Below are positions 43,307 to 64,000 of a stretch of 64,000 nt of DNA, piece by piece. The notes beneath the pieces are model-generated. The model did not search any database, was not told the origin of the DNA, and worked only from the letters and a program-made list of their open reading frames with translations. The DNA is from Lentisphaerae bacterium RIFOXYA12_FULL_48_11. GTDB lineage: Bacteria > Verrucomicrobiota > Kiritimatiellia > UBA8416 > YA12-FULL-48-11. Numbering within the stretch: position 1 is the first letter of the stretch; every line of letters begins with the position of its first letter. Position numbers and translations under genes: made by a program. The DNA is taken from NCBI GenBank assembly GCA_001804885.1, contig MHBM01000243.1:28119-92118 (forward strand), given 5' to 3'.

Positions 43307-43402
43307 ACTTATCAGCAATTCTTGCTGGAACTATAACCAGTCCGCATAGTATGTTTATTTCTACTCGTATGACGCAAAAGCTGACTGAGAAAGGAATCGA
43401 AA

Positions 43403-44906: not shown

Positions 44907-45761
44907 ATGAAATTACACAATTCCAATGCAGAAATTTTTGTGCCTGATGGTGTAACAACCGAGAATGCGCTTTCGAGAAGCACGCATATGGGGTTCGGAG
45001 CACATCAGGATGACATTGAAATACTCGGATTTCATGGAATCCTGGAATGTATGAACACACCTGGAAACTGGTTTACAGCCGTCACATGTACTGACGGAGC
45101 CGGAAGTCCAAGAACAGGTCGATATACCGCTTACAGCAATGAACAGATGCAGGAAGTAAGATGGCAAGAACAGCGTAATGCCGCAATGATTGGACGTTTC
45201 TCCGCTGCAGTTCAGCTGAAGCACCCCAGTTCTGAGATCAGAGCACCCAAAAACACCTCAGTCCTTGACGATTTCAGGAATATCTTGTCACAGGCCAATC
45301 CCACAGTCATTTACACTCACAACCTGGCCGACAAACATGACACACATTTAGGTGTAGTTCTAAAACTGATTACCGCGCTACGTGAACTACCTCACGAAAA
45401 ACGGCCCAAGAAAGTGTACGGCGTGGAAATATGGCGTGGTCTCGATTGGATGCCGGACGATGCAAAGATTATTCTCGATGTTAGCGGTGCCGATCATACT
45501 GCTGCAGCCCTGCTCGGTGCTTATGATTCGCAGATTGCAGGCGGTAAGAGGTATGATCTGGCCACAATGGGACGCTGGCGGGCCAATACAACATATTTTG
45601 ACGGTTATAGCGTGGACAAAGTTCAGTTGACCTCTTTCGCCATGGATTTAAGCCCTTTGATAATGAAAAGCACTCTTGATATTGTTGATTATGCTGCAGA
45701 GTATATTAACAAATTCAGGAATGACGTGATCGACAGACTTCACAAACAAATTGTACAATAA
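44907..45761 (+). CDS. PIG-L/LmbE-family N-acetyl-sugar deacetylase
   Basis: GAHQDDIE matches the family motif (A/P)H(P/Q)DDxE. A downstream His-Asp-His type motif is present in ADKHDTHLG. Confidence 0.7.
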   Translation: MKLHNSNAEIFVPDGVTTENALSRSTHMGFGAHQDDIEILGFHGILECMNTPGNWFTAVTCTDGAGSPRTGRYTAYSNEQMQEVRWQEQRNAAMIGRFSAAVQLKHPSSEIRAPKNTSVLDDFRNILSQANPTVIYTHNLADKHDTHLGVVLKLITALRELPHEKRPKKVYGVEIWRGLDWMPDDAKIILDVSGADHTAAALLGAYDSQIAGGKRYDLATMGRWRANTTYFDGYSVDKVQLTSFAMDLSPLIMKSTLDIVDYAAEYINKFRNDVIDRLHKQIVQ

Positions 45762-45862
45762 ATAACATGGAGAAAAAATGTACTTAGCAGGCAGGTCTAA
45801 ACATCATTGTAAATTATCTTTGTTGAATGATTGAATTAAACAATACAAATGAGGAGAAACAA

Positions 45863-46987: not shown

Positions 46988-47017
46988 AAGGACAGAGTCT
47001 TCCATCAGGAGTCAGAG

Positions 47018-49196: not shown

Positions 49197-50471
49197 ATGC
49201 AACCCATGACATCCATAATTAATGCCGTAAAAAGTAAACTTGGCGAGCTTGGATGGGGTGCACTGGTTGTTTTCATTATCTTCCGCTTTAACGACCTAGC
49301 CAGCATGTTCTATAAATTCTATATGGGGCATTTACTGCCGAACGCTGATTATGGTGCTCTTGATCCAGTCTACGCTGCAGCCACACTGTTTTCTATTCCT
49401 GCTGTAGCAATCTTCATGGTGGCCACCAAATCTATAAGTCGCCTGGATGCCATGGGAATGCAAAAAGAGAAGAACGCTTTGATTGCTGATTTGTTACGTA
49501 TGACTTTTGCCGGCAGCGTAGTTGCATTCATCGCAACCTTTGTTTTTCAATCAATTATCATTAACCGGCTCCATCTTTCTGGTCAATATTCATATATATT
49601 ATTTCTTGTCGTTCTTCTTATGTGGTGGCAACCAATGGCAATGGCTATATTTCAGGGAGAACGAAATTATACTTTACTTGCATTAAATGCTCTTTTCTCG
49701 GCAATAGTGCTGATCTTCGCATCAAGGCTACTGGTTGTTAATTTCGGATTTGGTCTGCATGGTGCGTTTCTTGCAAAAATCATAAGTGGCTGTGTTGTTC
49801 TTGTCATCTTAACGCTCTCTCTCAACAAACTTAAGAGAAATGTTCACGCTGATTATCAAAACGAGAAGACTGTCATGCGCGAGACCTTAATACCAATAAT
49901 GATATATCAAGCCTGTATTGTAGCACTTTTCCATAGTGATAAATTATTCGTAAGGAATTTTCTCTGTCCTGACTCGGGTGGATATGGTGCAATCGCAACA
50001 CTTGGCTCTATACCTGCTTACTTTATCAATGCCATGTCATTTGTCGTATTCCCCCTTGCTTCTGCGGATCATGCTGAAGGAAAAACAATGGTGAGATATT
50101 ATAAACAAACCATAATGTTATGCTTCGCAGTAATGATCACATGCTCGGGTACATTTTATTATCTCGCTCCGATTATTATTAAATTATGGAATACATCTTT
50201 CTCCGCTTATGCCGGCTATGTATGGATATATTCCGCCGTTATGAGCATCCATGGAGTTATTGTTGTATTCGCCAGCATCGAAATTGCATCACACAGATAT
50301 AAGTTTCTGTGGTTTATGGCGCCGGCCTCCTTGGTTACAGTCATAATTCTTTATTTATTCAGAGCGCAGTTAACTATTCCTGTAATTATTTCATGTTTAT
50401 TCGTCGTAAATGTATTTATCGCCAGTAGCCTGATATACTCAGCCACCATGAGATATAAGAACGCTCAGTAG
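49197..50471 (+). CDS. MOP/Wzx-like polysaccharide exporter (flippase)
   Basis: 424-aa polytopic membrane protein, with at least 10 hydrophobic segments by eye. Its size and pattern fit polysaccharide-biosynthesis (Wzx-type) transporters. Confidence 0.65.
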   Translation: MQPMTSIINAVKSKLGELGWGALVVFIIFRFNDLASMFYKFYMGHLLPNADYGALDPVYAAATLFSIPAVAIFMVATKSISRLDAMGMQKEKNALIADLLRMTFAGSVVAFIATFVFQSIIINRLHLSGQYSYILFLVVLLMWWQPMAMAIFQGERNYTLLALNALFSAIVLIFASRLLVVNFGFGLHGAFLAKIISGCVVLVILTLSLNKLKRNVHADYQNEKTVMRETLIPIMIYQACIVALFHSDKLFVRNFLCPDSGGYGAIATLGSIPAYFINAMSFVVFPLASADHAEGKTMVRYYKQTIMLCFAVMITCSGTFYYLAPIIIKLWNTSFSAYAGYVWIYSAVMSIHGVIVVFASIEIASHRYKFLWFMAPASLVTVIILYLFRAQLTIPVIISCLFVVNVFIASSLIYSATMRYKNAQ

Positions 50472-50559
50472 AGATAATTAATGATGAGACCGCCATTCAT
50501 AGATTCACAAAAAAACAGGCGAGAGAAAATAATTTAGTTGTACTATAGGAGCCCCCCCA

Positions 50560-51183
50560 ATGATTGCACGCCATGATGAAATCATTAATAATGAATTAAG
50601 AAGAATAAGCAATGATTACAAGGATCACAAAAGATTGGTTGATTTTGGCTGTGGCAACGGCGAGCGAACCTTACTGTTTGATGAATTTGGAAGGGAACTT
50701 ATAGGTTTAGACTATATAAGTTATGAATTAAGAGAGAACGATGAGAAAATTAAATTCTATAAAAGAAACTTCCTTAATTCAGAATTACCTGACAGTTTTG
50801 CAGACATGGTTATGTGTTTTGATGTTGTCGAACATATGGAGCAACCGGAGAATCTTTTAAAGGAAATTTATCGCGTAATGACTTCAAAAGGAATATTAAT
50901 ATTAGCAACACCAAACCGGAACCGGCTGACTAACTGGCCATTACTAGTTCTGGGACTTAAAAAATATCCAGCCCGAATCTCCAAAGAATTTGATCAATAT
51001 CCAGAATATTGGCATCTCACAGAGTATTCAGAAAAGCAACTACGGGCGTTGGTTGAGAAACATGCATTCATAATTCTTGAGTGGAAGAAAGTATACTACG
51101 GTTTGGCGGGAGGAACAGGTATTGACAACTTAAAGGGATTACCATTATACCACAATCACATCCTGGTACTGGGAAAGAAATGA
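50560..51183 (+). CDS. class I SAM-dependent methyltransferase
   Basis: Motif I LVDFGCGNGERT. Acidic post-I residue in LIGLDY. Motif II/III VMCFDVVEH...GILILATPN. Confidence 0.8.
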   Translation: MIARHDEIINNELRRISNDYKDHKRLVDFGCGNGERTLLFDEFGRELIGLDYISYELRENDEKIKFYKRNFLNSELPDSFADMVMCFDVVEHMEQPENLLKEIYRVMTSKGILILATPNRNRLTNWPLLVLGLKKYPARISKEFDQYPEYWHLTEYSEKQLRALVEKHAFIILEWKKVYYGLAGGTGIDNLKGLPLYHNHILVLGKK

Positions 51184-51201
51184 CCAGCATCTTTCCTGGT
51201 T

Positions 51202-53478
51202 CTACTTGACCTCAAAACGTTTCCGAAAATAAATAGTCTTACCTGCCGGCCAGGATATTGGATGATAAAGCAATTGCTTCTGATTCTGAGCATTAATAAA
51301 TGCATTAGGTTTGAACTGAAAGTAAGGCATCCAAGGTAGTGGCCCGCCGCAAGGACTGTTTGACCAGGATGAATCGTCAAAATTTACCGCATTCCAACTT
51401 GGTGTCTCGGCCTCTGACATCTTCCATGTACTATCGGTCCACATTTCCATTGAATGCCCTCGGAGATACATGGAAACCCAAGGATCTCGATGTGTACCAG
51501 TCACCTCAGCACATACAACATGAGTACCAGGGATAAGAACAAGTGGAATAACGCTCGCATTTATAAAATCGTCCCCAGCCATTACCAGGTTTCCATCATA
51601 GTAGATTCTTTTAGCGCCATTAATATGAGCCAATAAATACCCATTTGTCAGAGACGAATTGAACCAATTCAGTAATTTTGCCTGACTACGAACAGTTTCG
51701 CTATTTGCAGTCTTTTCGAATTCTTTATAAACTTCTTTTGAACGCGTATTCAAAATCCCCAGTCTTTCCTGATATGCAATAATCCTTAATTGCATCATTT
51801 CTGCCTCAGCAGTTCCCGCATATTTCTCAGCATACTCTTTACAATAATCAATTGCATCGGAGAACAAACCTAACCGCTCCTTCTCCCACAATTCACAGAA
51901 GAAAGAATCTTTCTCGAGAGGATCACGCGGAATATGACGTTCACAAACGTTCGGCATTGTTTCATTACAAGCACCAGGAGTTTGCATGTAATAATATGCA
52001 ACGCTCGACATATAACCGCGCGATACATTATTACCATGAGGACTACTACCAAACTCGATATTCATCTTAAAGGACTTTGCAAAATTGACAGGGTCCGGAA
52101 GATGGAACCTGTATTGGGTTGTTCGGATGCCTGATCTTTCCAATACTGCAGCCAAGGGCGATTGGAAAATCCCATAATTATAATACCACCCACCGTTGAA
52201 ATAATCTTCAAGGCCTGTCCCATGTAGCGAAGACATTACCTCACCATCCAGAAACATAGATTCATCGCTTTCGAGAATATTCCATGAACCGTCCATCCCG
52301 ATAGATGTAAGATATGTACCTGCATAATGACCTGCGCCTTGAACTGAGATAATATCATGAGGTTTGCCAGGAGTATGGCTCTGGTTCCAAAATGCATGGA
52401 AGTACCGCAATCGAGTATCCCAGTGCTTGAGTTTATCAGATCGTGCAACAATCTCCATTTCTAACGGAATACTACTTTCGTTATGTATTTCTATTCGCAT
52501 TTGTTGCCGAAAAGGCATCGGGAATCTGGATGTGAATGAACTTAAATGCCGGGAAAGATACATGGAATTATAAGTTGTCAATCTAACCCCATTGCAAAAG
52601 AAATCACCAAAAGGTACTTCGACACTAGGACTCTGAGCATTATTCCAAAATATTCGCAGAACCAACTCTCTGAGGAGACGATTTCTGTTATTAACAGATA
52701 TTTCTTTAGGAAATTGTAAATTGAAATCCAGTTCATGGACAATAGCAGGACCCTTTTCTTCCCAAACAGCGGTCTTTGTCATAGGTTGCAGAACAATCCT
52801 TTTCCCCGTAATCCCCTCCGGCTGTGAGCGCATACGCAATGTGTTTATTGAAATATTGTGCCAACAATTAGAAATATCCTCAAATTTCCATCGCAGTCTC
52901 TCGGCTGTTTCCATGCTGAATGATTCCACACCAACATTATTCGAGAATGTTTCATAATTAACCTGATAAAAGAAACAGAAGGGACCAGGCAATGGTTCGG
53001 CTGTAATAATCAGACGCTTCTTGAACAACAATGGGACATAGGATATTCCGGCGCCGCTTGGATCATGTGCCAATGGTATTATAAATGGAAATCTCTTTGC
53101 ATACCGCAAGTCGCCACACGTAATAATAAGAGACGGCGCCTGTTCTCCATCAAATCTGAAATATAGTTTGGCATCGGGATGCATACCGGTGAACCAAAAC
53201 CTTCTGACACATCCGGGACCTGTTAGATCGGCTATTATCGGCCGGCCGTCGTCCCCGAAACGTTGAAACGAGTGGCCGTCGTTGTTGCCACCGGAACGAT
53301 CATAGCTGGACTCCATTCTAACTATTCCAAGGGGGGCATATGCTATCTGAGAATAATTTGTTAAATCATTTAAGCACGACTCGAGATCCATTTTGATGGG
53401 AACATTTTGACTACATCCCGAAAGAATAATATTTAAAATAACAAATAAGTAAAAAGCTAGATTGTAACACTTCGGCAT
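51202..53478 (-). CDS. lipoprotein with DUF2961 / GH172-like domain plus a C-terminal beta-rich domain
   Basis: Lipobox ILSGC. The core block GAGHYAGTYL...ESDESMFLDGE...HGTGLEDYFNGGWYY resembles the DUF2961 (CAZy GH172) signature. About 250 extra C-terminal residues end in YFRKRFEVK. Confidence 0.65.
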   Translation of the reverse strand: MPKCYNLAFYLFVILNIILSGCSQNVPIKMDLESCLNDLTNYSQIAYAPLGIVRMESSYDRSGGNNDGHSFQRFGDDGRPIIADLTGPGCVRRFWFTGMHPDAKLYFRFDGEQAPSLIITCGDLRYAKRFPFIIPLAHDPSGAGISYVPLLFKKRLIITAEPLPGPFCFFYQVNYETFSNNVGVESFSMETAERLRWKFEDISNCWHNISINTLRMRSQPEGITGKRIVLQPMTKTAVWEEKGPAIVHELDFNLQFPKEISVNNRNRLLRELVLRIFWNNAQSPSVEVPFGDFFCNGVRLTTYNSMYLSRHLSSFTSRFPMPFRQQMRIEIHNESSIPLEMEIVARSDKLKHWDTRLRYFHAFWNQSHTPGKPHDIISVQGAGHYAGTYLTSIGMDGSWNILESDESMFLDGEVMSSLHGTGLEDYFNGGWYYNYGIFQSPLAAVLERSGIRTTQYRFHLPDPVNFAKSFKMNIEFGSSPHGNNVSRGYMSSVAYYYMQTPGACNETMPNVCERHIPRDPLEKDSFFCELWEKERLGLFSDAIDYCKEYAEKYAGTAEAEMMQLRIIAYQERLGILNTRSKEVYKEFEKTANSETVRSQAKLLNWFNSSLTNGYLLAHINGAKRIYYDGNLVMAGDDFINASVIPLVLIPGTHVVCAEVTGTHRDPWVSMYLRGHSMEMWTDSTWKMSEAETPSWNAVNFDDSSWSNSPCGGPLPWMPYFQFKPNAFINAQNQKQLLYHPISWPAGKTIYFRKRFEVK

Positions 53479-53500
53479 GATAAATCTCCCATTATTATTC

Positions 53501-54559
53501 TTAAAGAATATTTAGATATTTTGAACATCGCTTACAAAAGGGTGTCGGGTCAGTAATCATTTGCCTACGGAACGACATTGCACGGTTCCCGTTCCAAATA
53601 TCATTTATATCTTCAGTAAAGATATTTCCAAAGCTGTAATCACGTATCATCTCACTATATGCACCAAATTGGGGTAAAATACAGCATGGCAGCACATCAC
53701 CAAAAACCGTAATGTATGGATATACCCATGGATAGAAGCATGAAGACTTCATGATGCACGGCTGTGGTATTGAAATCTCCACCTTATTCTCTTCGGCATA
53801 CAACTTGATTCGGCGGAATATATCTTTGATGGTTGCGCCGTGACAATCATACAAGGAGGCGGTATTCTGAGAAAATACATCATGGACATTTTGAAAAGTT
53901 ACACCGGAAATCGATGGATATCGTGACGCCAGATCAACAACCGATCTTACGTTATTCAGATCGTCAAGCAAGTCCTTGACCAGAACCGTATTCAGGTATA
54001 TCAAGATTTCCGAGTTCGAACTTATTGCAGCATTATCAAGCAACCTTAAATTTTCCAGCAACTTTTCAATGCTGCCCCCCAGGCGGATCTTTTCATAAAT
54101 TCCAGGCACAGCACTTTCAATTGAAATCGTAATACTTCTCAATGATGTTGAGAGCAGTGAATTAATACGGTCCTCTGTCATCAACAAACCATTGGTAATA
54201 AAACCAACATCTATCCCTCTTCTAGCGGCCAGGCCAATCAGCTTCTCAAGGTCATTATTTAGTAGCCCTTCTCCCATTCCCGTAAGGTTTATTCCCTTCA
54301 GCGTGCCAAGCTTATCTAAAATATACTCAAACTGTTCAGGTTTTAAGAAAGCTTTCCGCGTACCTTTGTTTAGTCCGCACATCCGGCAATGCAAGTTACA
54401 TACAGAAGAAGGCTCGATCTGAATTTCAACAGGAAGAGGTAATTGTAATTTCCTGAAATAGGCGCCCTGATAATTCATTAAAGCTTTTATCGCTACTCGC
54501 AATCCGTACTTTGACATTACGTGAAGAATGTTCCGCGCACCTTTAAGAAGGAAATTCAT
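53501..54559 (-). CDS. radical SAM enzyme with reduced SPASM/twitch-type C-terminal Cys motif
   Basis: CNLHCRMC is the CX3CX2C motif. GMGEGLLN is a SAM-binding motif. The C-terminal CX12GX4C (CFYPWVYPYITVFGDVLPC) is followed by a terminal CKRC. Confidence 0.85.
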   Translation of the reverse strand: MNFLLKGARNILHVMSKYGLRVAIKALMNYQGAYFRKLQLPLPVEIQIEPSSVCNLHCRMCGLNKGTRKAFLKPEQFEYILDKLGTLKGINLTGMGEGLLNNDLEKLIGLAARRGIDVGFITNGLLMTEDRINSLLSTSLRSITISIESAVPGIYEKIRLGGSIEKLLENLRLLDNAAISSNSEILIYLNTVLVKDLLDDLNNVRSVVDLASRYPSISGVTFQNVHDVFSQNTASLYDCHGATIKDIFRRIKLYAEENKVEISIPQPCIMKSSCFYPWVYPYITVFGDVLPCCILPQFGAYSEMIRDYSFGNIFTEDINDIWNGNRAMSFRRQMITDPTPFCKRCSKYLNIL

Positions 54560-55812
54560 AAAATACGATGCTCCATCTGATCATTAAAGATGGATTTGAA
54601 TATTACATCAGCACGTTTATCCCAATCCCATTTCTCCTCAATCAGCGCAAATGCATCATTAGATAACTTTGAATACAGAGCCTGATCGTTGAGAAGTTTT
54701 AATATGTTTGCAGCGAAATCCGACAAGTCCCCAATCTTCGTTTTAAGTATACCTTTGGGATAATAAGTTTTCAATGCATCAAGATCATACGAAACACCTG
54801 GCAACCGCCACGCCATGCCTTCCGCAGCCGCCATGCCACCGCTGTCATATGTAGCAGGATGAAGCATTAGCCTGCTATTCTTGAATACTTCATATTTTGG
54901 TTCCCCATCAAGAAACCCAAACAATCTAACGTTTTTGGTAAGGCCATAACTATCAATTTTTTGTCGCACCTCTGCCTCCAAAGGTCCTACACCTATCATC
55001 GCCAATTGCGCGTCTGGTTTGACCTTACAAACGATTTTCCATATTTCAATAAGATCTAGAACCCCCTTCTGATAATGAAAACGTCCCAAAAAGCATGCAT
55101 CATATTGTTTTTGTTTGTCCTGAACGACCTGATTTGATGAGAAATATTTTTTCGATGGGCAGACATCAACCCCTCCCTGAACAACAATCACTCTTGATGA
55201 ATCTATTCGTCCTGATACAAATCTACTTACATCAGGAGCGGAAGTAACAAGAACATAATCTGCATATCTCCGGACAACAGATAGCGTATATTGCTGCATA
55301 AGCCAGTAAAGTAATCCCCTGAACCTTTGAATCCCCTTATATGGGGATTCGGATGCCCATGGAGATGGAGCGAAAAGAAAATATGACGCAATCCACTTTA
55401 TTCTCTTAAATCTTTTCTTAACATCATATGCCGGGATCAGATCAGGAAAAAAATCCGATAAAGAGTAAACATAATCGCAATCCTCTATTAAACTATTATT
55501 CTTACGGAAATAATTGACGGCTATAGCGGTTCGAGTCATTGCATGCTTTGCAAGGGTAATCGGGCTGTGTAAAATATTCTCAGGCGTTTGGCTCGCAGGG
55601 GAAATGACATGGCATTCAACACCAGAAATACCATATCGCACCATGGCATTTATTGTATGCTCATCAGCGCATACTTTTAATCTGGCCTTTGATTGCCATC
55701 GACGAACCAATTCCATGAAAATTCGAGACCCGCCGCTCAGGCCGATCATTGGTATGTCGTAATTCCCGACAAAAACTATGCTTGGTTTATCAGAAATAAT
55801 TGGAGTATTCAT
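54556..55812 (-). CDS. GT-B glycosyltransferase (GT4-like)
   Basis: C-terminal GT-B domain FLGRFHYQKG...LHPATYDSGGMAAAEGMAWRLPGV. 4-nt overlaps with both neighbouring genes. Confidence 0.8.
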   Translation of the reverse strand: MNTPIISDKPSIVFVGNYDIPMIGLSGGSRIFMELVRRWQSKARLKVCADEHTINAMVRYGISGVECHVISPASQTPENILHSPITLAKHAMTRTAIAVNYFRKNNSLIEDCDYVYSLSDFFPDLIPAYDVKKRFKRIKWIASYFLFAPSPWASESPYKGIQRFRGLLYWLMQQYTLSVVRRYADYVLVTSAPDVSRFVSGRIDSSRVIVVQGGVDVCPSKKYFSSNQVVQDKQKQYDACFLGRFHYQKGVLDLIEIWKIVCKVKPDAQLAMIGVGPLEAEVRQKIDSYGLTKNVRLFGFLDGEPKYEVFKNSRLMLHPATYDSGGMAAAEGMAWRLPGVSYDLDALKTYYPKGILKTKIGDLSDFAANILKLLNDQALYSKLSNDAFALIEEKWDWDKRADVIFKSIFNDQMEHRIL

Positions 55813-57032
55813 TTAACGTAATGCTTAATGATTAAATCGAGGTTTGCGGAACCAAAATTTCTTTCAGCATATGGCCTGCAATTAGCAACCATTTCCAGAT
55901 ATCTCGACTTATTATTAACAAGCCAAGAAATAGCAGTTTTGATGTTCTCGACCGTCGGATCGACAAGAATAGAAACGGAATCATCCAGTGCATCAGGTAT
56001 ACCACCCTTATTTGCACCGACAACTGGTGTTCCACAAGCGACTGCCTCCATAACAACACGGCCGAGGCCTTCTTCATATTGTGACGGAATACAGAGTAAA
56101 TCAGCAGCACTATAGTACTTCGTCAACTCGTTATTCGGAACAGGTCCGGCATGAATGATGTTCTTATGATGCCTGGAAACCTCGGCTAGCATCTCAGTAT
56201 CTTCACCGATACCAACAAATACAAAATTCACATCAGGCAGTAATTTCGCAACGTTAATCAAGACGCTTGTACCCTTTTTCTGCATGAGTCGGCCGACAAA
56301 CAACACCATAAACTTTTCATCCAGCCCAAGTATTGTCCGACATTTTTCTTTGCCCGCATTTCGAAAGTGGTATAGGTCAACCCAATAACGGTGACGGCTT
56401 AATCGATCTTCAGCAACCCCATAATTACGCATCTGAAGGAATGAAGAATTTGATACAGCCATCACAACATCTGCATGTCGCACAATCCAGCCTGCCACTC
56501 TTTCCGATATTGAGCGTGGAGGCATTTCGTAAATGGCATGAGTACTGAGTATCATTTTTTTCCTAAACAATACCTTGAAAATCACTCCCATAAAACCAGT
56601 ACTGAGTCCCTGTGCATGAATGATATCAATATCTCCGCAGTGTTTTAACAACCACAGGAAAGAACGGATCATCATGTATGGGGCCATGTACAAGAATGCC
56701 AAGAAAGGATATTTTTCAATCTTGTCATACACGCCACCGCTGATCCACTTGAACCGGAAGATTTCAGCACATCTCCCAATACGTTCATATAAAGGTGCAG
56801 GCAGACGATCGACGCCTATAGGCGAGTGAGTTAACAGGAAGAGCTTATAGCCGTTACCATCAAGAGCATAAACGAGATCAGAAAGATGCGTTTCAACCCC
56901 ACCGAGGCTCGGAGCAAATGTTGGTGATAGAATCAATATTCTAGGCTTATACTCCACATGATTGCAGAAATCCTGCCTATCGGATTGTTCACCAACATTA
57001 TCAGCTAAGTTCTTTGGCATACACTTGCCCAT
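55809..57032 (-). CDS. GT-B glycosyltransferase (GT4-like)
   Basis: SLGGVETHLSDL at the N-terminus. FVGRLMQKKG...IPSQYEEGLGRVVMEAVACGTPVV is an EX7E-type motif. Confidence 0.88.
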   Translation of the reverse strand: MGKCMPKNLADNVGEQSDRQDFCNHVEYKPRILILSPTFAPSLGGVETHLSDLVYALDGNGYKLFLLTHSPIGVDRLPAPLYERIGRCAEIFRFKWISGGVYDKIEKYPFLAFLYMAPYMMIRSFLWLLKHCGDIDIIHAQGLSTGFMGVIFKVLFRKKMILSTHAIYEMPPRSISERVAGWIVRHADVVMAVSNSSFLQMRNYGVAEDRLSRHRYWVDLYHFRNAGKEKCRTILGLDEKFMVLFVGRLMQKKGTSVLINVAKLLPDVNFVFVGIGEDTEMLAEVSRHHKNIIHAGPVPNNELTKYYSAADLLCIPSQYEEGLGRVVMEAVACGTPVVGANKGGIPDALDDSVSILVDPTVENIKTAISWLVNNKSRYLEMVANCRPYAERNFGSANLDLIIKHYVK

Positions 57033-57047
57033 GAATCTTCAGAAGGA

Positions 57048-58568
57048 TCATGACTGAAGAACATATCTCCACATAACACGTATTTTCTCTATTACTCCGG
57101 CAATCCCCTGCCCCTGCATAACTTTTAAAATCAAACGAAACTGCCGCAAGAACCAGCGAGGATTAGTAAGTTTACTTCTGAGCCATCTTTTCATGGCCGA
57201 CTGGTAGAACGCAACAACATCTTTTTGATCCATATCGCAATAACGGACTACAGACTGGTTATTACCGTCATAGTCCTCCCAGTTCTGGCTCATCAATCGA
57301 CCTTCTTTCTTCAATTCGTCATAGAAAGCCGTCCCGGGAAAAGGTGTCGCAATACTGAATTGCGCAGTATCACTGTCAATTGACATAGCTAACTGCATTG
57401 TTTCTTCCATGGTCTGTCGAGTCTCTCCTGACAATCCGAAACAGAATGTGGCATGAGTCTTGAGTCCAAGCCGAGCGGCTATCCTGCAATTCTCAACGAG
57501 TTTTGATCGATTTATGGGCTTGCATATACGCTTCAACACTTCATCGCTTCCACTTTCCACTCCGAATTTCAGGCCTATGCATCCTGCCTCTCTCATTTTA
57601 ACCAGCATTTCCTCGTCTGTAATCATAAAATCAGCCATTGCAGACCAGTAAACACGTTTATTTAAATCTCGGCGAATCATTTCATCACAAAACTGCATTA
57701 CATGCTTCTTGTTCCCTGTAAAAGTGTCATCATCAAAATATATTTCCCTTGCACCATACTTAGCAATCACTTCTTCAATCTCGTTGCATATCAGGCCAAC
57801 ATCCCTGCTACGATATGCCGCATTACAGTACATCACCTGATTCCAAACACAAAAATTACATCTAAACGGACATCCTCTGGAACCGTGCATTTGCACCGCT
57901 GGTTTGTACTGGCAAAATGAATCCCAATAGACATCAATATCAGGAATCTTGTTCGATGGAAATAAATGACGGGCCGGAAATGGAAGCATATTGATATCAA
58001 TGACTCCAGTAGACTCCTGAAGAACTAATTCATGGTTCTTCACGTATGCAATACCAGGAATAGAAGAAATATCCACTTGATCTCGCAAAGCACGGACAAG
58101 AGCAGAAAAATTAAATTCATATTCTCGAAGCAGAATAAAGTCAATCACACCAGGAGCAAGACTAATAGTCTCTTTGGGCAACGCGGTTGCATGGAAGCCT
58201 GCCATACAGATTTTTATTTCAGGAATTTGCGCTTTTATTCTGGTAGCCATATCGACATCATGCCTAATACAGCCAGTTGCTGTCTCAAAAAGCATGATAT
58301 CCGGACGCAGAGCAAATACTTTCTCCAGAAACAATGATTCAGCGTCATTAAGAGCTATACTATCCTCCACGAACACTTCGACATTGCCCTCCCTTTCCAA
58401 TAAAGCTGCAGTGTATGCAAGGTAAAATGGAAACGGCATATACAGTGATTTCTTGGACTTTTGCTTAACAATAGAAAAAGGCCAGCGCGAGCCAGCGCGA
58501 ATGTAGAATTGTTCCTCATTCTCGTTAATCTCATTTCGATAGACAGGATTTGCTAATAATACTTTCAT
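57048..58568 (-). CDS. cobalamin-binding-domain radical SAM enzyme (class B type)
   Basis: N-terminal Rossmann-like domain (KVLLANP...KICMAGFHATALP), then GSRGCPFRCNFC (CX3CX2C). 506 aa. Confidence 0.82.
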   Translation of the reverse strand: MKVLLANPVYRNEINENEEQFYIRAGSRWPFSIVKQKSKKSLYMPFPFYLAYTAALLEREGNVEVFVEDSIALNDAESLFLEKVFALRPDIMLFETATGCIRHDVDMATRIKAQIPEIKICMAGFHATALPKETISLAPGVIDFILLREYEFNFSALVRALRDQVDISSIPGIAYVKNHELVLQESTGVIDINMLPFPARHLFPSNKIPDIDVYWDSFCQYKPAVQMHGSRGCPFRCNFCVWNQVMYCNAAYRSRDVGLICNEIEEVIAKYGAREIYFDDDTFTGNKKHVMQFCDEMIRRDLNKRVYWSAMADFMITDEEMLVKMREAGCIGLKFGVESGSDEVLKRICKPINRSKLVENCRIAARLGLKTHATFCFGLSGETRQTMEETMQLAMSIDSDTAQFSIATPFPGTAFYDELKKEGRLMSQNWEDYDGNNQSVVRYCDMDQKDVVAFYQSAMKRWLRSKLTNPRWFLRQFRLILKVMQGQGIAGVIEKIRVMWRYVLQS

Positions 58569-59731
58569 AGAGCAAGAAAGACTTCTCCGACAATTCGTTC
58601 ACCGATATTGTTCCAATTCATTTCATTTTCCGCAAGTTTACGAGCATTAGATGCTATTCTTTCAGAAAGCTCGTCGTCATTCAGAACCTTGATCATATTT
58701 TCAGCCAACTCAAAAGCATCACTCGGATTAGACGTTAACCCCGCATTATAACGTTCAAGATATCTTTTTACTTCGCCAACCGCATTGGAGACGATTGGTC
58801 GTTGCGCACACAGGTAATCTCCTAACCTCATAGGAAAGCGTGCATGTTCTATTGGATTGTTTTCCATGGGCAATATTAAACAGTCGGCGGCACCAAGGTA
58901 TAAAGGAACACGATCAAACGGTTGTGCTCCCTCGAAAATGACAGCCGCCTTGATATTCTCAAGCAAAGAACTATACTGCGGCCCCACATTGCAATCCCCA
59001 ACCATCACAAGACATACGTCATCTATTTCTTTCTTAACTATCTCAAAAGCTCTAAACATTACCCCTACACTCTCGGTATATGTATTCCCTATCGACACAA
59101 AGTATCTTCGTCCAGGCAGCAATCCCAAGGATTGCTGTGCACTTATTTTTTCAATCACCGGAACAGATTCCACCGCTGCTCCATTAATGACTTTGATCTT
59201 GGGTGCAGTTATGCACTTGATAGCATCAATTCGGGCTCCTATCGACTCGGAAACATATGTAATTCTGTCAGCATATCTCAGAAAGAATACCTCACAGAAT
59301 GACAAAACAGCTCTCACTGCAGAACCATGCATATCCGCAAAGCCACCGCCCCACATATCATCCCAGTCAATGATTAGAGGCTTCCTCCTCAATGTCTTTG
59401 AAATCCATGCGGGAATTCCAATCTGCGGCTGTGCCACTGTAAAAGCATAACAAACGTCGAAACGGCCAAATAAAACAATAAAAGCTGTTAGAAACAGGCG
59501 CAATATCTGCCCCGAAAAATATTTATGGTATTTAAATCTCGGTAGCGTAACTATTGTAAACCCTTTTGCAACAGATTTACGCCTTATTTTGAAGTCGCAA
59601 GTTGAACCTGATGCACAGATCATACTCACATCGTAACCCAATCGCACTAATTGAGATCCAATATTCTTACAACGCCAATAAGTGCCAAACCATTCCTGGT
59701 TATGATTTATTATTAGAATATGCTTTCTCAT
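58565..59731 (-). CDS. GT-B glycosyltransferase
   Basis: ILIINHNQEWFGTYWRCKNIGSQLVRLGYDV at the N-terminus. The C-terminal domain has VGDCN...LILPMENNPIEHARFPMRLGDYLCAQRPIV. Confidence 0.75.
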   Translation of the reverse strand: MRKHILIINHNQEWFGTYWRCKNIGSQLVRLGYDVSMICASGSTCDFKIRRKSVAKGFTIVTLPRFKYHKYFSGQILRLFLTAFIVLFGRFDVCYAFTVAQPQIGIPAWISKTLRRKPLIIDWDDMWGGGFADMHGSAVRAVLSFCEVFFLRYADRITYVSESIGARIDAIKCITAPKIKVINGAAVESVPVIEKISAQQSLGLLPGRRYFVSIGNTYTESVGVMFRAFEIVKKEIDDVCLVMVGDCNVGPQYSSLLENIKAAVIFEGAQPFDRVPLYLGAADCLILPMENNPIEHARFPMRLGDYLCAQRPIVSNAVGEVKRYLERYNAGLTSNPSDAFELAENMIKVLNDDELSERIASNARKLAENEMNWNNIGERIVGEVFLAL

Positions 59732-59740
59732 TTACCTTCT

Positions 59741-60835
59741 TCACGAACATCTGAAACAAATTGGATGAGGGCGCGACTTTCTTAGAATTCTGAATTTTAC
59801 AGCTCTATCACTGTTCCATATTTCCGACAGTCTCTGAGTCCTTACATTGCCAAGCGAATAATTATGACAAAGGAACACTTCGCCATACGCATCAATCAAC
59901 ATCCCGGAATAGAGAGAATTGCAATATTTTACATCAAAGGGCATAGAGGAAAAGTATTTTCGATAGAACGCATGATCAGCATTTTTATATACATCGACAT
60001 TTTTGTTCTTTTTCGCATTATCCAGGAACTCTATATATTGTTCTATCTTGTTTGAAATAAACGTATAATTATCAGGAAGCTTCACCCCAAAAGGTTCACC
60101 CGAATATTGATAACGTTCTATGAAGTCTTTCTGTTCAGACGGCAAAGACTCCATGTAAAAATGTACTGGATAAAAAGAGAGTTTATCCCATCTCAATTCT
60201 TGAAACAGGCCAAGAATCCGTTTCGGAACCCGCAAGTCATCTTCCAGATCAATGTGGCAGGAAACATTAACCCTTGGATATGCCGACCTTATCCTCGCCC
60301 TTACGTTTAGCATATTTATTAATCCCGTCACAGCTGATGATGAATCGACATTATCCTCATTGGCTCCTGCAAGGTGAGACGAATCCAGTGATATTGATAT
60401 AAAATCAAGTCCTGCCTTTATCAAATCTTCCGCAACTCGTTCCGTCAATAAACCTCCATTCGTCGCGAGGTTACAGATCAATCCCCTTGATTTTGCATAG
60501 CGAATCATGTCACTGACATCATCGCGAATCAGAGGTTCACCGCCGCCAAAGGACAATATCGAGGAAAAACCAGCTATTTGATTGATCAACACATGATACT
60601 CTTCGAGGGAGAGCTCTTTTTGAATTGAAGCATCAACACCGCAAGCTTTCTTGGCATAGCACATTGCACACCGAAAATTGCATCGCATGCTCGGGCAAAC
60701 AATTACAGTTTCAGGAAACAAGCTTCTACCATGCATAAAATGGTAGTCAAACTTCATTCCCCTGAGTATTCTTTTTGCAACCAATTGAACCATTTTACAA
60801 GGATGACTCAGGGCCAATTTAAAATAATACCACAT
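59741..60835 (-). CDS. radical SAM enzyme with reduced SPASM/twitch-type C-terminal Cys motif
   Basis: CNFRCAMC is the CX3CX2C motif. FGGGEPLI is a SAM-binding motif. The C-terminal CX12GX4C (CNSLYSGMLIDAYGEVFLC) is followed by a terminal CFRC. Confidence 0.85.
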   Translation of the reverse strand: MWYYFKLALSHPCKMVQLVAKRILRGMKFDYHFMHGRSLFPETVIVCPSMRCNFRCAMCYAKKACGVDASIQKELSLEEYHVLINQIAGFSSILSFGGGEPLIRDDVSDMIRYAKSRGLICNLATNGGLLTERVAEDLIKAGLDFISISLDSSHLAGANEDNVDSSSAVTGLINMLNVRARIRSAYPRVNVSCHIDLEDDLRVPKRILGLFQELRWDKLSFYPVHFYMESLPSEQKDFIERYQYSGEPFGVKLPDNYTFISNKIEQYIEFLDNAKKNKNVDVYKNADHAFYRKYFSSMPFDVKYCNSLYSGMLIDAYGEVFLCHNYSLGNVRTQRLSEIWNSDRAVKFRILRKSRPHPICFRCS

Positions 60836-60855
60836 ATTATTTCCTGATAATAACG

Positions 60856-61560
60856 CTAAGGTTTTCTCGCCTCAACATGAAGGCTTCCCGTCATGTGTAC
60901 ATCCAGTTTTTCAACATCATCCATTTCACCCTTCCGGAAATCACACAAATTGATATTTATGAATCCAGCATACCTCAGCAACGCACACATGCTTTCATAG
61001 TCATACATCCACTTGTGATGACGAAGGAAATATTCGGTAAAACGTCTCTTGAATTTCGGTTTCACAGACATATTCATGTCAACTGGAAGAAATTGAGCAG
61101 AGAACCAGTCGCATCGCGTAAACGATATACAACAGTCATCAGGCAACGGAGGATCAAAGTCGTCGCTCGTCGAGAGGTATTTTTGTGCAATCTGTTTTCC
61201 ATCAGGAACCACAACCCTGATCAACCCTCCTGGCTTTAAAACACGATACGCTTCTTTAAGCATTGCAATAACTTCATGACGGTACAGGTGCTCCAGGAAA
61301 TGACTTGTATATACACAATCAACGGCATTATCTCCCTTTGGTATTCCCCGACGACAATCATGACATACAACAGGAGGCCACTTTAGGCCCAGGTACCCTG
61401 GCACGAGCAAACCAAGTCTTACACATACTCTAATTAAAAAAGGAAAACGTGAAAAACGTGCAACAATTGAATTATCATAATTCAACCATTGAGGCAGGCC
61501 TGAAAATCCACTGCCAAGATTTATTTTAACTTTTCCACAACCTGTCTGTGAAGAATTCAT
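60856..61560 (-). CDS. SAM-dependent methyltransferase-like protein
   Basis: INLGSG, SHFLEHL and LKPGGLIRVVVPD blocks are typical of Methyltransf_11/23-type enzymes found in glycan loci. Confidence 0.7.
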   Translation of the reverse strand: MNSSQTGCGKVKINLGSGFSGLPQWLNYDNSIVARFSRFPFLIRVCVRLGLLVPGYLGLKWPPVVCHDCRRGIPKGDNAVDCVYTSHFLEHLYRHEVIAMLKEAYRVLKPGGLIRVVVPDGKQIAQKYLSTSDDFDPPLPDDCCISFTRCDWFSAQFLPVDMNMSVKPKFKRRFTEYFLRHHKWMYDYESMCALLRYAGFININLCDFRKGEMDDVEKLDVHMTGSLHVEARKP

Positions 61561-61566
61561 AACCCC

Positions 61567-62769
61567 TCAAGCTTTAGTACAACCATCATCGATCAACATG
61601 CCAATTCTGTCTCTATAGGCTTTTTGAGCCATTTCGTTTTGTTCTTTGACAAACTTTGCAATATTAGCCTGAAAATCGATCATGGATTCATTCATGGCAA
61701 GTCCTAGGACATTAACCAGGGCTGACTCATCAACCGGTATGATATACCCTAAACTTAGTTGCCGTATTGTTCCCGCAAATTCGGTAATATCCGAAGCAAT
61801 AACCGGGAGTCCAAATGAAAAATACTGAATAATCTTTGTCGGAAAACCATAATAGGAATAATTCTCTGTCCCAACGGTCCTGTACAACGCAAACCCCATA
61901 TTACAACGTGAAACTATCGTATCGAGTTCGGGGCCAGGCAAAATCATACCATGAAATGTGACCATCTTTTCCATCCCGTATTTCTGTACATATTCCCTAA
62001 GATGCGACACATAGTCACTATGGCCAACGATATCCAGATGGATTGACGCCTTTGTTCTTGAATAAATTTGATACATACCCCTTATCAACATTTCAAGACA
62101 ATGGTCTTCCCTCGGAATTCCTATATAAAGAATCTGTATACCATCAGTATTTCCACGTTTTTTAGGAATTTTAAAAGCCATGGGATACTTAAGCATCTTG
62201 TTCGCATTCAGCAAATCAGCAGCATATTCCGCACGTATCGCATTCAACCGGTCAGACACACTCCACACCATATCTGCGTTTCGCGCACAAATAATATCCA
62301 ATCTTTTGTAAATATGTTTCCTGAAAAGTCTCTGCAAGAATGACAGACTTGTATCATGCCACGGGAACCAATCCCCACAAAAGTATACGACCTTTTTAAT
62401 CATGCCTTTGCCGCGTAGGCGAAGAGCCCAGGTACACATGTAGATTGAATCAGCAACCACAACATCGATTGGAGGCGTGATACAGGAGAAGACTTTCCTG
62501 AAAATAAGATAACCATTCAGCAATGGTCGCAAAGGTGATGGAACGTAACCAATAGGAAACTCTTTTGATACACGGCGCTCACCATCGAAGTATATAAACC
62601 TACACTTCTGGTTGATGGACGCAAGGAATAGTGCAGGCACATAAGAATCACGAAGAAAATCAAAAATACATTCTTCGTTATTACCTCCCCCCGCTACGCA
62701 TACAATTTTTGGCTTAATCATTGATATGTTACCAATTGTTTCAAATAAAAGATGCAACGGTCGAATCAA
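61567..62769 (-). CDS. GT-B glycosyltransferase-like protein
   Basis: Two-domain size (400 aa). The C-terminal block YIGIPREDHCLEMLI...YGFPTKIIQYFSFGLPVIASD resembles a GT-B donor-binding domain. The assignment is weaker than for the other GTs. Confidence 0.65.
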   Translation of the reverse strand: MIRPLHLLFETIGNISMIKPKIVCVAGGGNNEECIFDFLRDSYVPALFLASINQKCRFIYFDGERRVSKEFPIGYVPSPLRPLLNGYLIFRKVFSCITPPIDVVVADSIYMCTWALRLRGKGMIKKVVYFCGDWFPWHDTSLSFLQRLFRKHIYKRLDIICARNADMVWSVSDRLNAIRAEYAADLLNANKMLKYPMAFKIPKKRGNTDGIQILYIGIPREDHCLEMLIRGMYQIYSRTKASIHLDIVGHSDYVSHLREYVQKYGMEKMVTFHGMILPGPELDTIVSRCNMGFALYRTVGTENYSYYGFPTKIIQYFSFGLPVIASDITEFAGTIRQLSLGYIIPVDESALVNVLGLAMNESMIDFQANIAKFVKEQNEMAQKAYRDRIGMLIDDGCTKA

Positions 62770-64000
62770 AATTTATTGTTGATAAACTCCCGCACAAGCA
62801 AGCCTACCCCACGCAGGTAATCAAGCTTGCGTTGTGAGTGACATATTGTACGCCAATATTTGGGAGAAACGTAGAAGCGGATATGTGGCCAGACTTTATT
62901 CTGCGTCCGCCAGTGCTTGTGGACCCATACTGACAGATCGATATTATGCTGCGCAAAACGCAACGACTTTATCATCCCATCAGAGCCTGGGTTAGCAAAA
63001 CTGAGTAATCCATATTCTTCCCTTGTGAATTTACGGTCCCAGTTATTATATATTTCAGTGCCGGGATATGGAACAAAAGTATTAATTGCAACAATTTCCG
63101 ACTTTAACCGTTTTAATAATTGCAGAATATCTTCAAGATCCTGCTCCTGCTCCTGAGGCAGATTCACCAGCATGTTTGCATATGTTCGAATTCCGTACTT
63201 ATGGCAAATATCAAAAACATTTATAATTTCTTCAATAGTAATACCTTTCTTGATCAACTTGAGGGCACGGTTAGACCCGCGCTCGACACCAAATTCAATC
63301 TGGATACATCCGGCCTCTGCCATTTTCTTTATCATTTCCTCGTCGAGTGTTGATACCTTTGAAATACAACTCCATGGCATTTTAATATTATCCCTGAGAA
63401 TGAGGTTGCAAAAATCGATAGTATTTTTCTTATCAAGAGTAAAAAGATCATCGAGGAAAAGAAAGGCATCAACTTCGTACTTTTCCTTAAGTAGTTTCAC
63501 CTCAAGAAAAAGACTTTCGGCAGTGCGCATTCGCAGGTATTTCGCACCACCCGAGGCTTTTCTAACATATTTCGCCACACAAAATGTGCATTGCGATGGA
63601 CATCCACGCCCACCCATGATATGGGCAGCCCTGAGCAAAACACCTTTAATGGCATACGGAGAAGCGGTCGAGTAATACTGCATATCCACCAAATCGTACG
63701 CAGGAAAGGAAATCGAATCTAGATCATGAACAATATTCCGTGGTCTTGTCTGAATCATTCTTCCTGAAATGTCGTCGTAAAAAGCTATTCCATCGACTTG
63801 AGCATAATCAGATTGACTGCTAAGAATTTTTTTCGAAAGATCACACATGGTAATCTCGCCATCACCGATGACGGCAAAATCTATCGGTCGTCCAGGTTCT
63901 TCAAAAATACTTTCCGGATAGAGTGTTGGGTGCGCCCCCCCTACAACGATTTTCACGTTCGGATTTATTGCCTTGAAACGGTTTGCTAGATTCGTAACCT
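62766..64000 (-). CDS. cobalamin-binding-domain radical SAM enzyme (5' end beyond the window)
   Basis: The frame stays open through base 64000 (…VTNLANRFKAINPNVKIVVGGAHPT). GGRGCPSQCTFC is the CX3CX2C motif. 4-nt overlap with the downstream GT. Confidence 0.8.
   Translation of the reverse strand, partial: VTNLANRFKAINPNVKIVVGGAHPTLYPESIFEEPGRPIDFAVIGDGEITMCDLSKKILSSQSDYAQVDGIAFYDDISGRMIQTRPRNIVHDLDSISFPAYDLVDMQYYSTASPYAIKGVLLRAAHIMGGRGCPSQCTFCVAKYVRKASGGAKYLRMRTAESLFLEVKLLKEKYEVDAFLFLDDLFTLDKKNTIDFCNLILRDNIKMPWSCISKVSTLDEEMIKKMAEAGCIQIEFGVERGSNRALKLIKKGITIEEIINVFDICHKYGIRTYANMLVNLPQEQEQDLEDILQLLKRLKSEIVAINTFVPYPGTEIYNNWDRKFTREEYGLLSFANPGSDGMIKSLRFAQHNIDLSVWVHKHWRTQNKVWPHIRFYVSPKYWRTICHSQRKLDYLRGVGLLVREFINNKF

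Follow-up and report, generated by a model that had tools for sequence, protein, structure and literature searches.

Radical SAM enzymes among the glycosyltransferases of a putative surface-glycan locus in a Lentisphaerae bacterium

What would a bacterium build with a gene cluster in which glycosyltransferases (GTs) are interleaved with radical S-adenosylmethionine (rSAM) enzymes? The question is raised by a 64-kb stretch of DNA from Lentisphaerae bacterium RIFOXYA12_FULL_48_11, a groundwater metagenome-assembled genome from the Rifle aquifer. This whole stretch is called the window below, and all coordinates refer to it. Domains were assigned by Pfam and NCBIfam profile searches, with their gathering scores or cutoffs. 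From about 40.2 kb onwards, and some 7 kb beyond the window end, the DNA is probably a single glycoconjugate locus of this anaerobe, making a surface glycan or glycolipid tailored by rSAM enzymes. In general terms, the genomic context, which consists of gene content, gene order and a set of conserved pairs and cassettes, gives good support for a surface glycan or glycolipid whose sugars undergo radical tailoring. The locus is a genuine member of a recurrent but uncharacterised class of glycan loci, and an unusually rSAM-rich one.

Layout of the locus

Ten minus-strand genes are packed between positions 64000 and 51202 of the open reading frame (ORF) listing, namely two B12-type rSAM enzymes (rSAM A and B), two SPASM/twitch rSAM enzymes (SPASM A and B), four GT-B glycosyltransferases, one methyltransferase and one GH172 lipoprotein. 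Four junctions show 4-nt overlaps (62766/62769, 58565/58568, 55809/55812 and 54556/54559), the other gaps being 6, 20, 9, 15 and 22 nt. According to Pfam, the first half of the operon runs B12-binding plus Radical_SAM, Glycos_transf_1, Methyltransf_11, Radical_SAM plus SPASM, GT4, and the second half B12 plus Radical_SAM, GT4, Glycos_transf_1, Radical_SAM plus SPASM, DUF2961/GH172. This is the order that an earlier note had read from the DNA letters, with every ORF in its place and no gap above 22 nt. On the plus strand, a flippase gene (49197-50471) and a second methyltransferase gene (50560-51183) converge on the operon. The features are as follows.

62766..64000, minus strand: B12-type (class B) rSAM A; Radical_SAM 84.7 bits, B12-binding 29.5 bits; CPSQCTFC motif
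61567..62769, minus strand: GT-B glycosyltransferase; Glyco_trans_1_4 and Glycos_transf_1; 4-nt overlap with rSAM A
60856..61560, minus strand: class I SAM-dependent methyltransferase (MT11); Methyltransf_11 36.2 bits; weak NCBIfam MftM match
59741..60835, minus strand: SPASM/twitch rSAM A; Radical_SAM 62.2 bits, SPASM 51.7 bits; CNFRCAMC motif
58565..59731, minus strand: GT4, partner of B12-type rSAM B; N- and C-terminal GT4 Pfam domains; 4-nt overlap
57048..58568, minus strand: B12-type rSAM B; Radical_SAM 70.7 bits, B12-binding 23.1 bits
55809..57032, minus strand: GT4 glycosyltransferase; Glycos_transf_1 105 bits and Glyco_transf_4
54556..55812, minus strand: GT-B glycosyltransferase, partner of SPASM rSAM B; Glycos_transf_1 81.6 bits; 4-nt overlap
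53501..54559, minus strand: SPASM/twitch rSAM B; Radical_SAM 63.8 bits, SPASM 55.1 bits
51202..53478, minus strand: GH172 (DUF2961) lipoprotein, last gene of the operon; DUF2961 201.5 bits against a cutoff of 27; three precomputed GH172 domains
50560..51183, plus strand: class I SAM-dependent methyltransferase, convergent; Methyltransf_23, Methyltransf_11 and Methyltransf_31
49197..50471, plus strand: MOP-superfamily (Wzx-like) flippase by predicted fold, 424 aa, polytopic; small family without a Pfam model

All four rSAM enzymes possess the CX3CX2C motif (at residues 229, 233, 52 and 54) and score 62-85 bits with Radical_SAM (PF04055), against a cutoff of 29.5. In the source genome, all locus proteins that were looked up bear the NCBI label "hypothetical".

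The Wzx-like exporter proposed in the earlier note holds at the fold level. No Pfam (Polysacc_synt models) or NCBIfam match to the flippase was found even at E ≤ 10, nor any PDB sequence match. Nineteen homologues were found. The AlphaFold2 (AF2) model of the flippase, built from 18 homologues with a mean confidence (pLDDT) of 89.8, predicts a MOP fold of about 12 transmembrane helices, with a Foldseek probability of 1.0 to MATE (E 7e-8), WzxE and MurJ and the highest TM-score to the lipid III flippase WzxE (0.76/0.78). As for the last operon gene, its proposed GH172-like nature is borne out by the DUF2961 score and by an N-terminal lipobox (LSGC, residues 19-22); members of the GH172 family are active on alpha-D-furanosides. 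MT11 is weakly matched by the mycofactocin oligosaccharide methyltransferase MftM, and the GT4 at 55809..57032 has sub-threshold NCBIfam matches to TuaC, MshA and a GlcNAc-phosphatidylglycerol synthase. The rSAM/GT part (49197-64000) has a GC content of 0.41, compared to 0.435 for the housekeeping part (1-40199) and 0.45 for the amino-sugar block described below, a modest dip that is typical of variable glycan loci. A promoter and terminator scan at the convergence point gave fewer matches than shuffled sequence and was uninformative.

The operon does run off the window edge, as had been noted: identical DNA in other assemblies extends it past 64000. The rSAM A gene, cut at the edge, encodes 506 aa in its complete form and would end at about 64286 in window coordinates. 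It is preceded by a TylF-type methyltransferase gene, the first of the operon. Further on lie genes for a divergent 854-aa polytopic protein and a 278-aa GT2 with a weak match to the mycofactocin-associated MftF, two short-chain dehydrogenase/reductase (SDR) epimerase/dehydratase genes, both with CDP-tyvelose 2-epimerase as nearest PDB match, and then SMC. The 854-aa protein itself has no Pfam or NCBIfam match; over its full length it shares 35% identity with an 832-aa protein for which a weak YfhO match is precomputed. The gene of the latter lies directly upstream of a flippase homologue (P0136), and Wza, a Wzc-like protein and Bac_transf are encoded in the same locus. A relationship to the ~890-aa Pfam-less proteins of Patescibacteria loci was rejected (BLASTP E 0.28).

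Seven sugar-precursor genes at 40200-48876, co-directional with the flippase, complete the picture.

40200..42086, plus strand: GlmS (glutamine-fructose-6-phosphate transaminase), first of the plus-strand block; NCBIfam glmS 790 bits against a cutoff of 418
42083..43306, plus strand: left-handed beta-helix (LbH) protein, 407 aa, like the acetyltransferase half of GlmU; GlmU models below cutoff, weak Hexapep_GlmU match
43403..44755, plus strand: phosphoglucosamine mutase GlmM; NCBIfam glmM 583 bits against a cutoff of 447.6
44907..45761, plus strand: PIG-L family de-N-acetylase; PIG-L 55.7 bits
45827..46987, plus strand: DegT/DnrJ/EryC1 sugar aminotransferase; DegT 363.5 bits; 90% identical and syntenic in the relative L098
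47018..48088, plus strand: GFO/IDH/MocA sugar oxidoreductase; Pfam GFO_IDH_MocA; 91% identical and syntenic in L098
48088..48876, plus strand: NagB-like glucosamine-6-phosphate deaminase/isomerase; NCBIfam nagB 260.5 bits against a cutoff of 236.9; syntenic in L098

In L098, a close relative with 76-91% protein and 72-79% DNA identity to the window, the order is GlmM, PIG-L, DegT, GFO, NagB, a 475-aa B12-rSAM and the flippase. Since all of these stand in one string there, the block from GlmM to NagB is tied to the rSAM and flippase system, whereas GlmS and the LbH protein are linked to it by co-direction and adjacency, because the L098 contig begins just upstream of GlmM. The additional B12-rSAM of L098 (L098 5819-7246, between the NagB-like protein and the flippase) is 31% identical to rSAM A and has no remnant in the 320-bp non-coding gap at 48877-49196 of the window; thus, the rSAM content of the locus varies between related genomes. 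Concerning the LbH protein, only residues 6-224 are matched by NCBIfam GlmU models, in each case below cutoff; it lacks a nucleotidyltransferase domain, ~180 C-terminal residues are without assignment, and its gene overlaps glmS by 4 nt and precedes glmM.

The earlier note had listed as missing the initiating phosphoglycosyltransferase, Wzy polymerase, chain-length regulator and nucleotide-sugar genes. The first three are indeed absent from the annotated ORFs, while the last part of the claim fails, given the GlmS to NagB-like block and a ManC gene in the window. The GT cluster, the sugar-nucleotide genes, the MOP/Wzx-fold flippase and the slightly lower GC recall Wzx/Wzy-dependent O-antigen, capsule and exopolysaccharide loci. 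However, the window and the 7-kb extension contain no initiating transferase, Wzy, Wzz/Wzc or Wza, and the four rSAM enzymes and the GH172 lipoprotein are atypical of such loci; a classic Wzx/Wzy locus was rejected for these missing genes. A second resemblance is to extracytoplasmic glycosylation systems of the CsbB/GtcA/YfhO type (GT2, flippase and YfhO/GT-C): here, too, a GT2 stands beside a large polytopic protein, and PMT_2 and AftD GT-C proteins recur in related loci, although the YfhO relation of the Pfam-less 854-aa protein is second-hand and weak. Judged from the sequences, no characterised locus matches the gene set: no homology or neighbourhood search placed it in one, and the NCBI names are hypothetical or generic.

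Related loci and conserved gene pairs

A scan with rSAM B, taking one genome per GTDB species, provided 80 loci, the neighbours of which were collected within ±10 kb by crude longest-ORF gene calling and clustered, representatives being annotated with Pfam; the counts for gene pairs and for GH172 use 86 loci. The 80 loci belong to Patescibacteria (Moranbacteria, Saccharibacteria, Shapirobacteria, WWE3), Verrucomicrobia, Elusimicrobia/Endomicrobia, Omnitrophota, Acidobacteria, Myxococcota, Desulfobacterota, methanotrophs, DPANN archaea and two isolates. Their neighbours are distributed as follows.

SDR epimerase/dehydratase: 51/80 loci
GT4, three protein clusters: 21/80, 9/80 and 7/80 loci
GT2: 15/80 loci
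PIG-L: 12/80 loci
PMT_2-type GT-C, two clusters: 8/80 and 6/80 loci
DegT: 8/80 loci
WecG/TagA: 8/80 loci

Multiple rSAM enzymes per locus are not restricted to the window. By phmmer classification, at least two B12-rSAMs are found in 31/80 loci, at least three in 7/80 and at least four in 3/80; a SPASM-type rSAM is also present in 7/80 loci, and 11/80 hold three to five rSAM enzymes, among them a Saccharibacteria contig (L016/L093), L021, an Endomicrobiia contig (L064) and an Elusimicrobia contig (L043). GT and sugar-nucleotide genes neighbour the rSAM genes in many unrelated lineages, so that the latter are not unlinked passengers, an outcome for which the earlier note had allowed.

The most frequent pair consists of a homologue of the GT4 at 58565-59731 lying directly beside an rSAM B homologue, which occurs in about 25 of the 86 loci with GT4 identities of up to 54%. 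Among the closest relatives (48-54% identity) the GT4 gene is the upstream one and 27-43 nt separate the two; in more distant relatives the GT4 gene is immediately downstream of the rSAM gene. Concerning SPASM B, all three homologue contexts examined (L093, L094 and L095) are loci rich in GTs and B12-rSAMs; in L094 and L095, the order is that of the window, with a 4-nt overlap between the gene for a GT of 397-419 aa and the SPASM B homologue, and L093 has two SPASM rSAM enzymes together with three or more B12-rSAMs, interspersed with GTs and AftD-like GT-C proteins. Because these pairs recur in distant, mostly uncultured phyla, the GT-rSAM pairing goes beyond chance. Orthologues of the two SDR genes are also found beside rSAM B homologues, in Moranbacteria, in a metagenome contig and on plasmid p5 of Azospirillum brasilense, with 46-47% and 62-66% identity. 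Related loci further carry an ABC-2 membrane/ATPase pair and, in the case of the flippase homologue, Wza/Wzc/Bac_transf.

These data do not agree with a duplicated module of B12-rSAM, GT(s) and SPASM enzyme, which the gene order had suggested to the earlier note. Identity between the B12-type rSAM A and B is 32%; between SPASM A and B it is ~30% for the N-terminal ~115 residues and 43% for ~49 residues of the C-terminal part, and the sole significant match between GTs of the locus is 24% over 244 aa. Moreover, other phyla contain relatives of each rSAM that are closer to it than its paralogue in the locus, and the conserved GT4-rSAM B pair straddles the two modules. A recent module duplication was therefore rejected, given ~30% paralogue identity, weak GT matches and a pair crossing the module boundary; of the earlier interpretation, the genomic tie between rSAM enzymes and GTs stands and the duplicated module falls.

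Cultured carriers of the rSAM B family are Eleftheria terrae, Azospirillum brasilense, Methylomonas sp. TEB and Aquabacterium sp. A7-Y, all annotated generically only, the A. brasilense rSAM (D3869_RS32825, strain MTCC4039) being unnamed. In the teixobactin producer Eleftheria terrae P9846-PB (NZ_CP106952.1, a 784-kb replicon; L096 9627-18468), an rSAM 40% identical to rSAM B (N7L95_RS24805, with RS24800 for the partner GT) belongs to a compact operon (RS24790-24820) in the order PIG-L, oxidoreductase, WecG/TagA, "radical SAM protein", "cobalamin-dependent protein", SDR, GT4, GT4, which recurs in Methylomonas, Methylomagnum and Terriglobales loci.

On the Saccharibacteria contig CAYMJO010000002.1 (L093 11078-20636 / L016 4159-10032), two large GT-C proteins of 827 and ~1,955 aa, each with an N-terminal domain of the arabinofuranosyltransferase AftD, lie among at least five B12-rSAMs and two SPASM rSAM enzymes. 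Together with the GH172 protein of the window, these hint at furanose-containing glycans.

As for the literature, no description of this rSAM family was found in the full-text articles on rSAM enzymes in polysaccharide, O-antigen, capsule or candidate-phyla glycan loci, a body of text outside which most subscription journals fall. A 2026 review of B12-dependent rSAM enzymes lists GenK, GenD1 and MoeK5 among the methyltransferases; it does not contain the words polysaccharide, glycan, sugar or capsule, and it refers to carbohydrates once, in generic terms, naming fosfomycin and gentamicin as examples.

The radical SAM enzymes and the alternative readings

More than 4,800 relatives of rSAM B were found at E ≤ 1e-20, many of them full-length with 45-60% identity and all generically named. 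The rSAM A subfamily is rare, with three full-length representatives at 42% identity or more among the representatives of 50%-identity clusters. The B12-binding domain (PF02310) is precomputed on nearly all homologues and on the full-length rSAM A copy. The window also encodes a class II B12-dependent ribonucleotide reductase with a TSCPD domain (3206-6157, plus strand), and the organism thus uses cobalamin, a point of relevance to its B12-type rSAM enzymes. Several proteins of ~1,000-2,600 aa (P0173, P0174, P0177, P0196, P0212, P0225 and others) contain two to four stretches matching the B12-rSAM query and look like tandem multi-module class B rSAM proteins.

The best NCBIfam matches of the two B12-rSAMs are to HpnJ (223.4 bits for rSAM B and 164.1 bits for rSAM A), ApyD and BchE. 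If these enzymes were HpnJ- or calditol synthase-like, a GT4 would add GlcNAc, PIG-L would deacetylate it, and the pyranose would then contract to a carbocyclic cyclitol, yielding acid-stable carbasugar units. Several features fit: HpnJ is the top model for both proteins, the locus logic parallels the hopanoid route of HpnI (GT), HpnK (deacetylase) and HpnJ (PMC13459092), PIG-L occurs in the window and in the 12 loci counted above, in several of them just upstream of the rSAM pair, and GT4 proteins have sub-threshold matches to the GlcNAc transferases MshA and BshA and to GlcNAc-phosphatidylglycerol synthase. What the locus would have in common with this route and with archaeal calditol synthase Cds is the succession of GT, deacetylase and B12-domain rSAM acting on an attached hexosamine. 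Yet this reading is unlikely. Both scores are far below the HpnJ cutoff (577.6), rSAM B is only 28-29% identical to PGAP-named HpnJ, and no hopanoid genes (shc, hpnH, hpnG, hpnI, hpnK) are found among the annotated ORFs of the window or extension, so that assignment to HpnJ (TIGR03471) was rejected. The locus also has four rSAM enzymes and five GTs instead of one of each, and the HpnJ reaction itself has been deduced from genetics only (PMC13459092).

A family member from a phosphonate context, P0098, bears directly on this point. It shares 45% identity with rSAM B and forms a fusion with a sugar-phosphate nucleotidyltransferase, and its gene comes after those for a phosphonopyruvate decarboxylase (Ppd, 456.7 bits; cutoff 312.5) and an Fe-ADH; with 258 bits on the HpnJ model it scores above both rSAM A and rSAM B, and HpnJ-likeness is therefore a property of the clade and not a guide to chemistry. 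Fom3, a cobalamin-dependent rSAM, C-methylates cytidylyl-2-hydroxyethylphosphonate in fosfomycin biosynthesis, and the gene layout around P0098 presumably mirrors it. By analogy, this suggests that the rSAM B clade acts on nucleotide-activated substrates, and hints that it can methylate. The likeness to Fom3 is drawn from gene layout, and the window differs from it: neither PEP mutase nor phosphonopyruvate decarboxylase is present, and the presumed substrate is an NDP-sugar or glycoside; membership in a Fom3-like phosphonate pathway was rejected on this ground. On the two Rifle groundwater contigs concerned (L100, 201-6133, and L101), Ppd, Fe-ADH and the nucleotidyltransferase::B12-rSAM fusion P0098 are followed by a second B12-rSAM and then a GT4, a combination that possibly makes a C-methylated, phosphonate-decorated glycan.

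Comparison with sugar-acting rSAM enzymes, as had been proposed, places AprD4, BtrN, BlsE and DesII among the nearest solved structures of the locus rSAM enzymes by sequence. The similarity is at the superfamily level (E 1e-10 to 1e-21, partial lengths), the best PDB sequence matches of the B12-rSAMs being AprD4 and MgmA. Among the aminoglycoside enzymes, GenK and GenD1 are class B C-methyltransferases, AprD4 is a dehydratase, BtrN is a twitch-type dehydrogenase, and NeoN and HygY are twitch-type epimerases. Class B and twitch rSAM enzymes beside GT4, PIG-L, DegT and a sugar oxidoreductase are common to their clusters and the window, with sugar carbons as presumed targets here.

Could the locus then make a diffusible, aminoglycoside-like or otherwise glycosylated secondary metabolite instead of a surface polymer? 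GT4, PIG-L, DegT, a sugar oxidoreductase and a class B rSAM form the toolkit of the butirosin, neomycin and gentamicin pathways, which the locus gene set matches; the nearest solved structures include the aminoglycoside enzymes AprD4 and BtrN, and a MOP/MATE-fold exporter is present. We nevertheless hold this to be quite improbable. No cyclitol synthase (DOIS, inositol-phosphate synthase) and no resistance gene were found among the annotated ORFs of the window, and an aminoglycoside cluster was rejected since a cyclitol-forming enzyme is absent from those of the extension as well. The number of GTs (five), the glycoside hydrolase being a lipoprotein, the YfhO-related protein and the flippase fold, with its highest TM-score to WzxE, point instead to a lipid-linked glycan in a surface context, as do the WecG/TagA, PMT_2, AftD GT-C, ABC-2 and Wza/Wzc/Bac_transf genes of related loci. 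Furthermore, the rSAM B family occurs in Elusimicrobia, Verrucomicrobia and other phyla, is common in small-genome Patescibacteria, and is not one of actinomycete antibiotic clusters.

Concerning the SPASM/twitch enzymes, the SPASM profile (PF13186) scores 51.7 and 55.1 bits in SPASM A and B, against a cutoff of 21.5. The seven-Cys motif of two auxiliary clusters is absent: SPASM A has four C-terminal Cys only (C305, C323, C360, C363), and the SPASM B family, a small one with 19 homologue matches, has invariant Cys at 54, 58, 61, 274, 292, 293, 342 and 345, the last five being C-terminal. We take this C-terminal spacing to resemble the single-cluster twitch domain of BtrN. The nearest PDB sequences of SPASM A are BlsE, the Fe-S radical SAM protein 8wm2, MoaA, GDGT-MAS and DesII. 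For SPASM B, BtrN is the best match (E 1.7e-10), over the C-terminal ~85 residues only, and in the fold search with its AF2 model (pLDDT 90.3) the neighbours were SuiB, DesII, CteB, BlsE, SkfB and BtrN, the latter ranking 17th (query TM-score, TMq, 0.49). As enzymes acting on peptides and on sugars are mixed among these neighbours, the search confirms the fold of SPASM B and leaves its substrate class aside.

That the SPASM/twitch enzymes, perhaps with the B12-rSAMs, mature a glycosylated RiPP (a peptide made on the ribosome and modified after translation) or a glycoprotein is very unlikely: SuiB, CteB and SkfB do head the fold neighbours of SPASM B, many NCBIfam matches are to peptide maturases (ApyD, rSAM_ocin_1, PqqE, the mycofactocin rSAM) and the GT2 beyond the window and MT11 weakly match MftF and MftM, but the peptide-maturase matches are all far below cutoffs, the operon is too tightly packed for a precursor gene, no RiPP recognition, protease or transporter components were seen, the four to five conserved auxiliary Cys are twitch-like, as in BtrN, instead of the seven of peptide maturases, and the SPASM B homologue contexts are all GT-rich. 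The RiPP reading was rejected for want of a plausible precursor, ORFs of at least 25 aa around the convergence point and a 57-aa ORF upstream of the SDR genes showing no precursor-like features.

Proposed pathway and remaining genes of the window

Under the preferred reading of a surface glycan or glycolipid tailored by rSAM enzymes, the plus-strand block (GlmS, LbH, GlmM, GFO, DegT, PIG-L and NagB-like proteins) would supply amino-sugar building blocks, and the two CDP-tyvelose-2-epimerase-like SDR enzymes epimerised NDP-hexoses. The four GT-B enzymes and the GT2 beyond the window would build an oligosaccharide on a lipid acceptor at the cytoplasmic face, each rSAM working with its translationally coupled GT. 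The two cobalamin-type enzymes would alter the carbon skeleton of the sugar, most likely by C-methylation at an unactivated carbon of a sugar that is either NDP-activated or newly transferred, while the two twitch-type enzymes may oxidise or epimerise a sugar carbon in the manner of BtrN. We infer that the rSAM chemistry is probably C-methylation plus oxidation or epimerisation. Three class I methyltransferases would add O- or N-methyl groups, the MOP/Wzx-fold protein would flip the lipid-linked product, and the 854-aa YfhO-related membrane protein and the GH172 lipoprotein may finish or trim it outside the cytoplasm.

Several observations weigh against this pathway. The B12-binding scores (29.5 and 23.1 bits) are below the Pfam gathering score of 32.1, and the neighbour counts depend on the crude gene calling described above. 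The genes for GH172 (found in 0/86 loci), the TylF methyltransferase and MT11 are not conserved in related loci. Because no initiating phosphoglycosyltransferase, Wzy, chain-length regulator or Wza was found among the annotated ORFs of the window and 7 kb beyond, the lipid acceptor and the export route are putative. Also, the fold search with SPASM B returned the RiPP maturases as readily as sugar enzymes. In the 2026 review, HpnJ and BchE, which are among the best NCBIfam matches, are placed under other or unknown transformations and not with the methyltransferases, and AprD4 among "unrelated enzymes"; C-methylation is thus not the sole option. Finally, product, substrate and reactions are predictions, for every protein of the locus and its close relatives alike.

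A broader and more tentative idea, which we regard as possible but rather doubtful, is that anaerobes and candidate phyla share a widespread, unrecognised mode of glycan building, in which each GT has its own rSAM to rewrite the skeleton or stereochemistry of the added sugar, be it by branching with a C-methyl group, by contracting the ring to a carbasugar, or by radical epimerisation or oxidation. If so, the polysaccharides or glycolipids concerned would contain sugars not yet catalogued in bacterial glycan chemistry, and the Lentisphaerae locus would be among the richest examples, since it has two pairs of either kind. To our knowledge, the cases in which the tailoring of sugars by rSAM enzymes has been elucidated come from antibiotic pathways (gentamicin, butirosin, apramycin, moenomycin) and from hopanoid and calditol head groups. 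Should the GT-rSAM pairs act on surface glycans, a broad enzyme family, spanning thousands of sequences from Patescibacteria, Elusimicrobia, Verrucomicrobia, Acidobacteria, methanotrophs and DPANN archaea, would make modifications not described by standard glycan analysis, with effects on envelope stability, phage and host recognition, and biomarker chemistry. The cultured carriers make the question of a glycan role testable, and the two CDP-tyvelose-2-epimerase-like SDR enzymes, the GT4 and the B12-rSAM form a defined cassette for reconstitution.

Three further groups of genes were observed in the window. A Wzm/Wzt ABC-2 exporter pair, the Wzt having a C-terminal glycan-binding domain, is encoded at 6654-8660 (plus strand), and a ManC-type mannose-1-phosphate guanylyltransferase at 10321-11406 (plus strand). 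They are ~40 kb away from the rSAM genes and indicate a second route to a surface glycan, an ABC-dependent one. A type II secretion/type IV pilus-like set (secretin, PilM-like protein, GspK, pseudopilins, GspG, GspF and GspE ATPase) occupies 23506-34408 on the minus strand.

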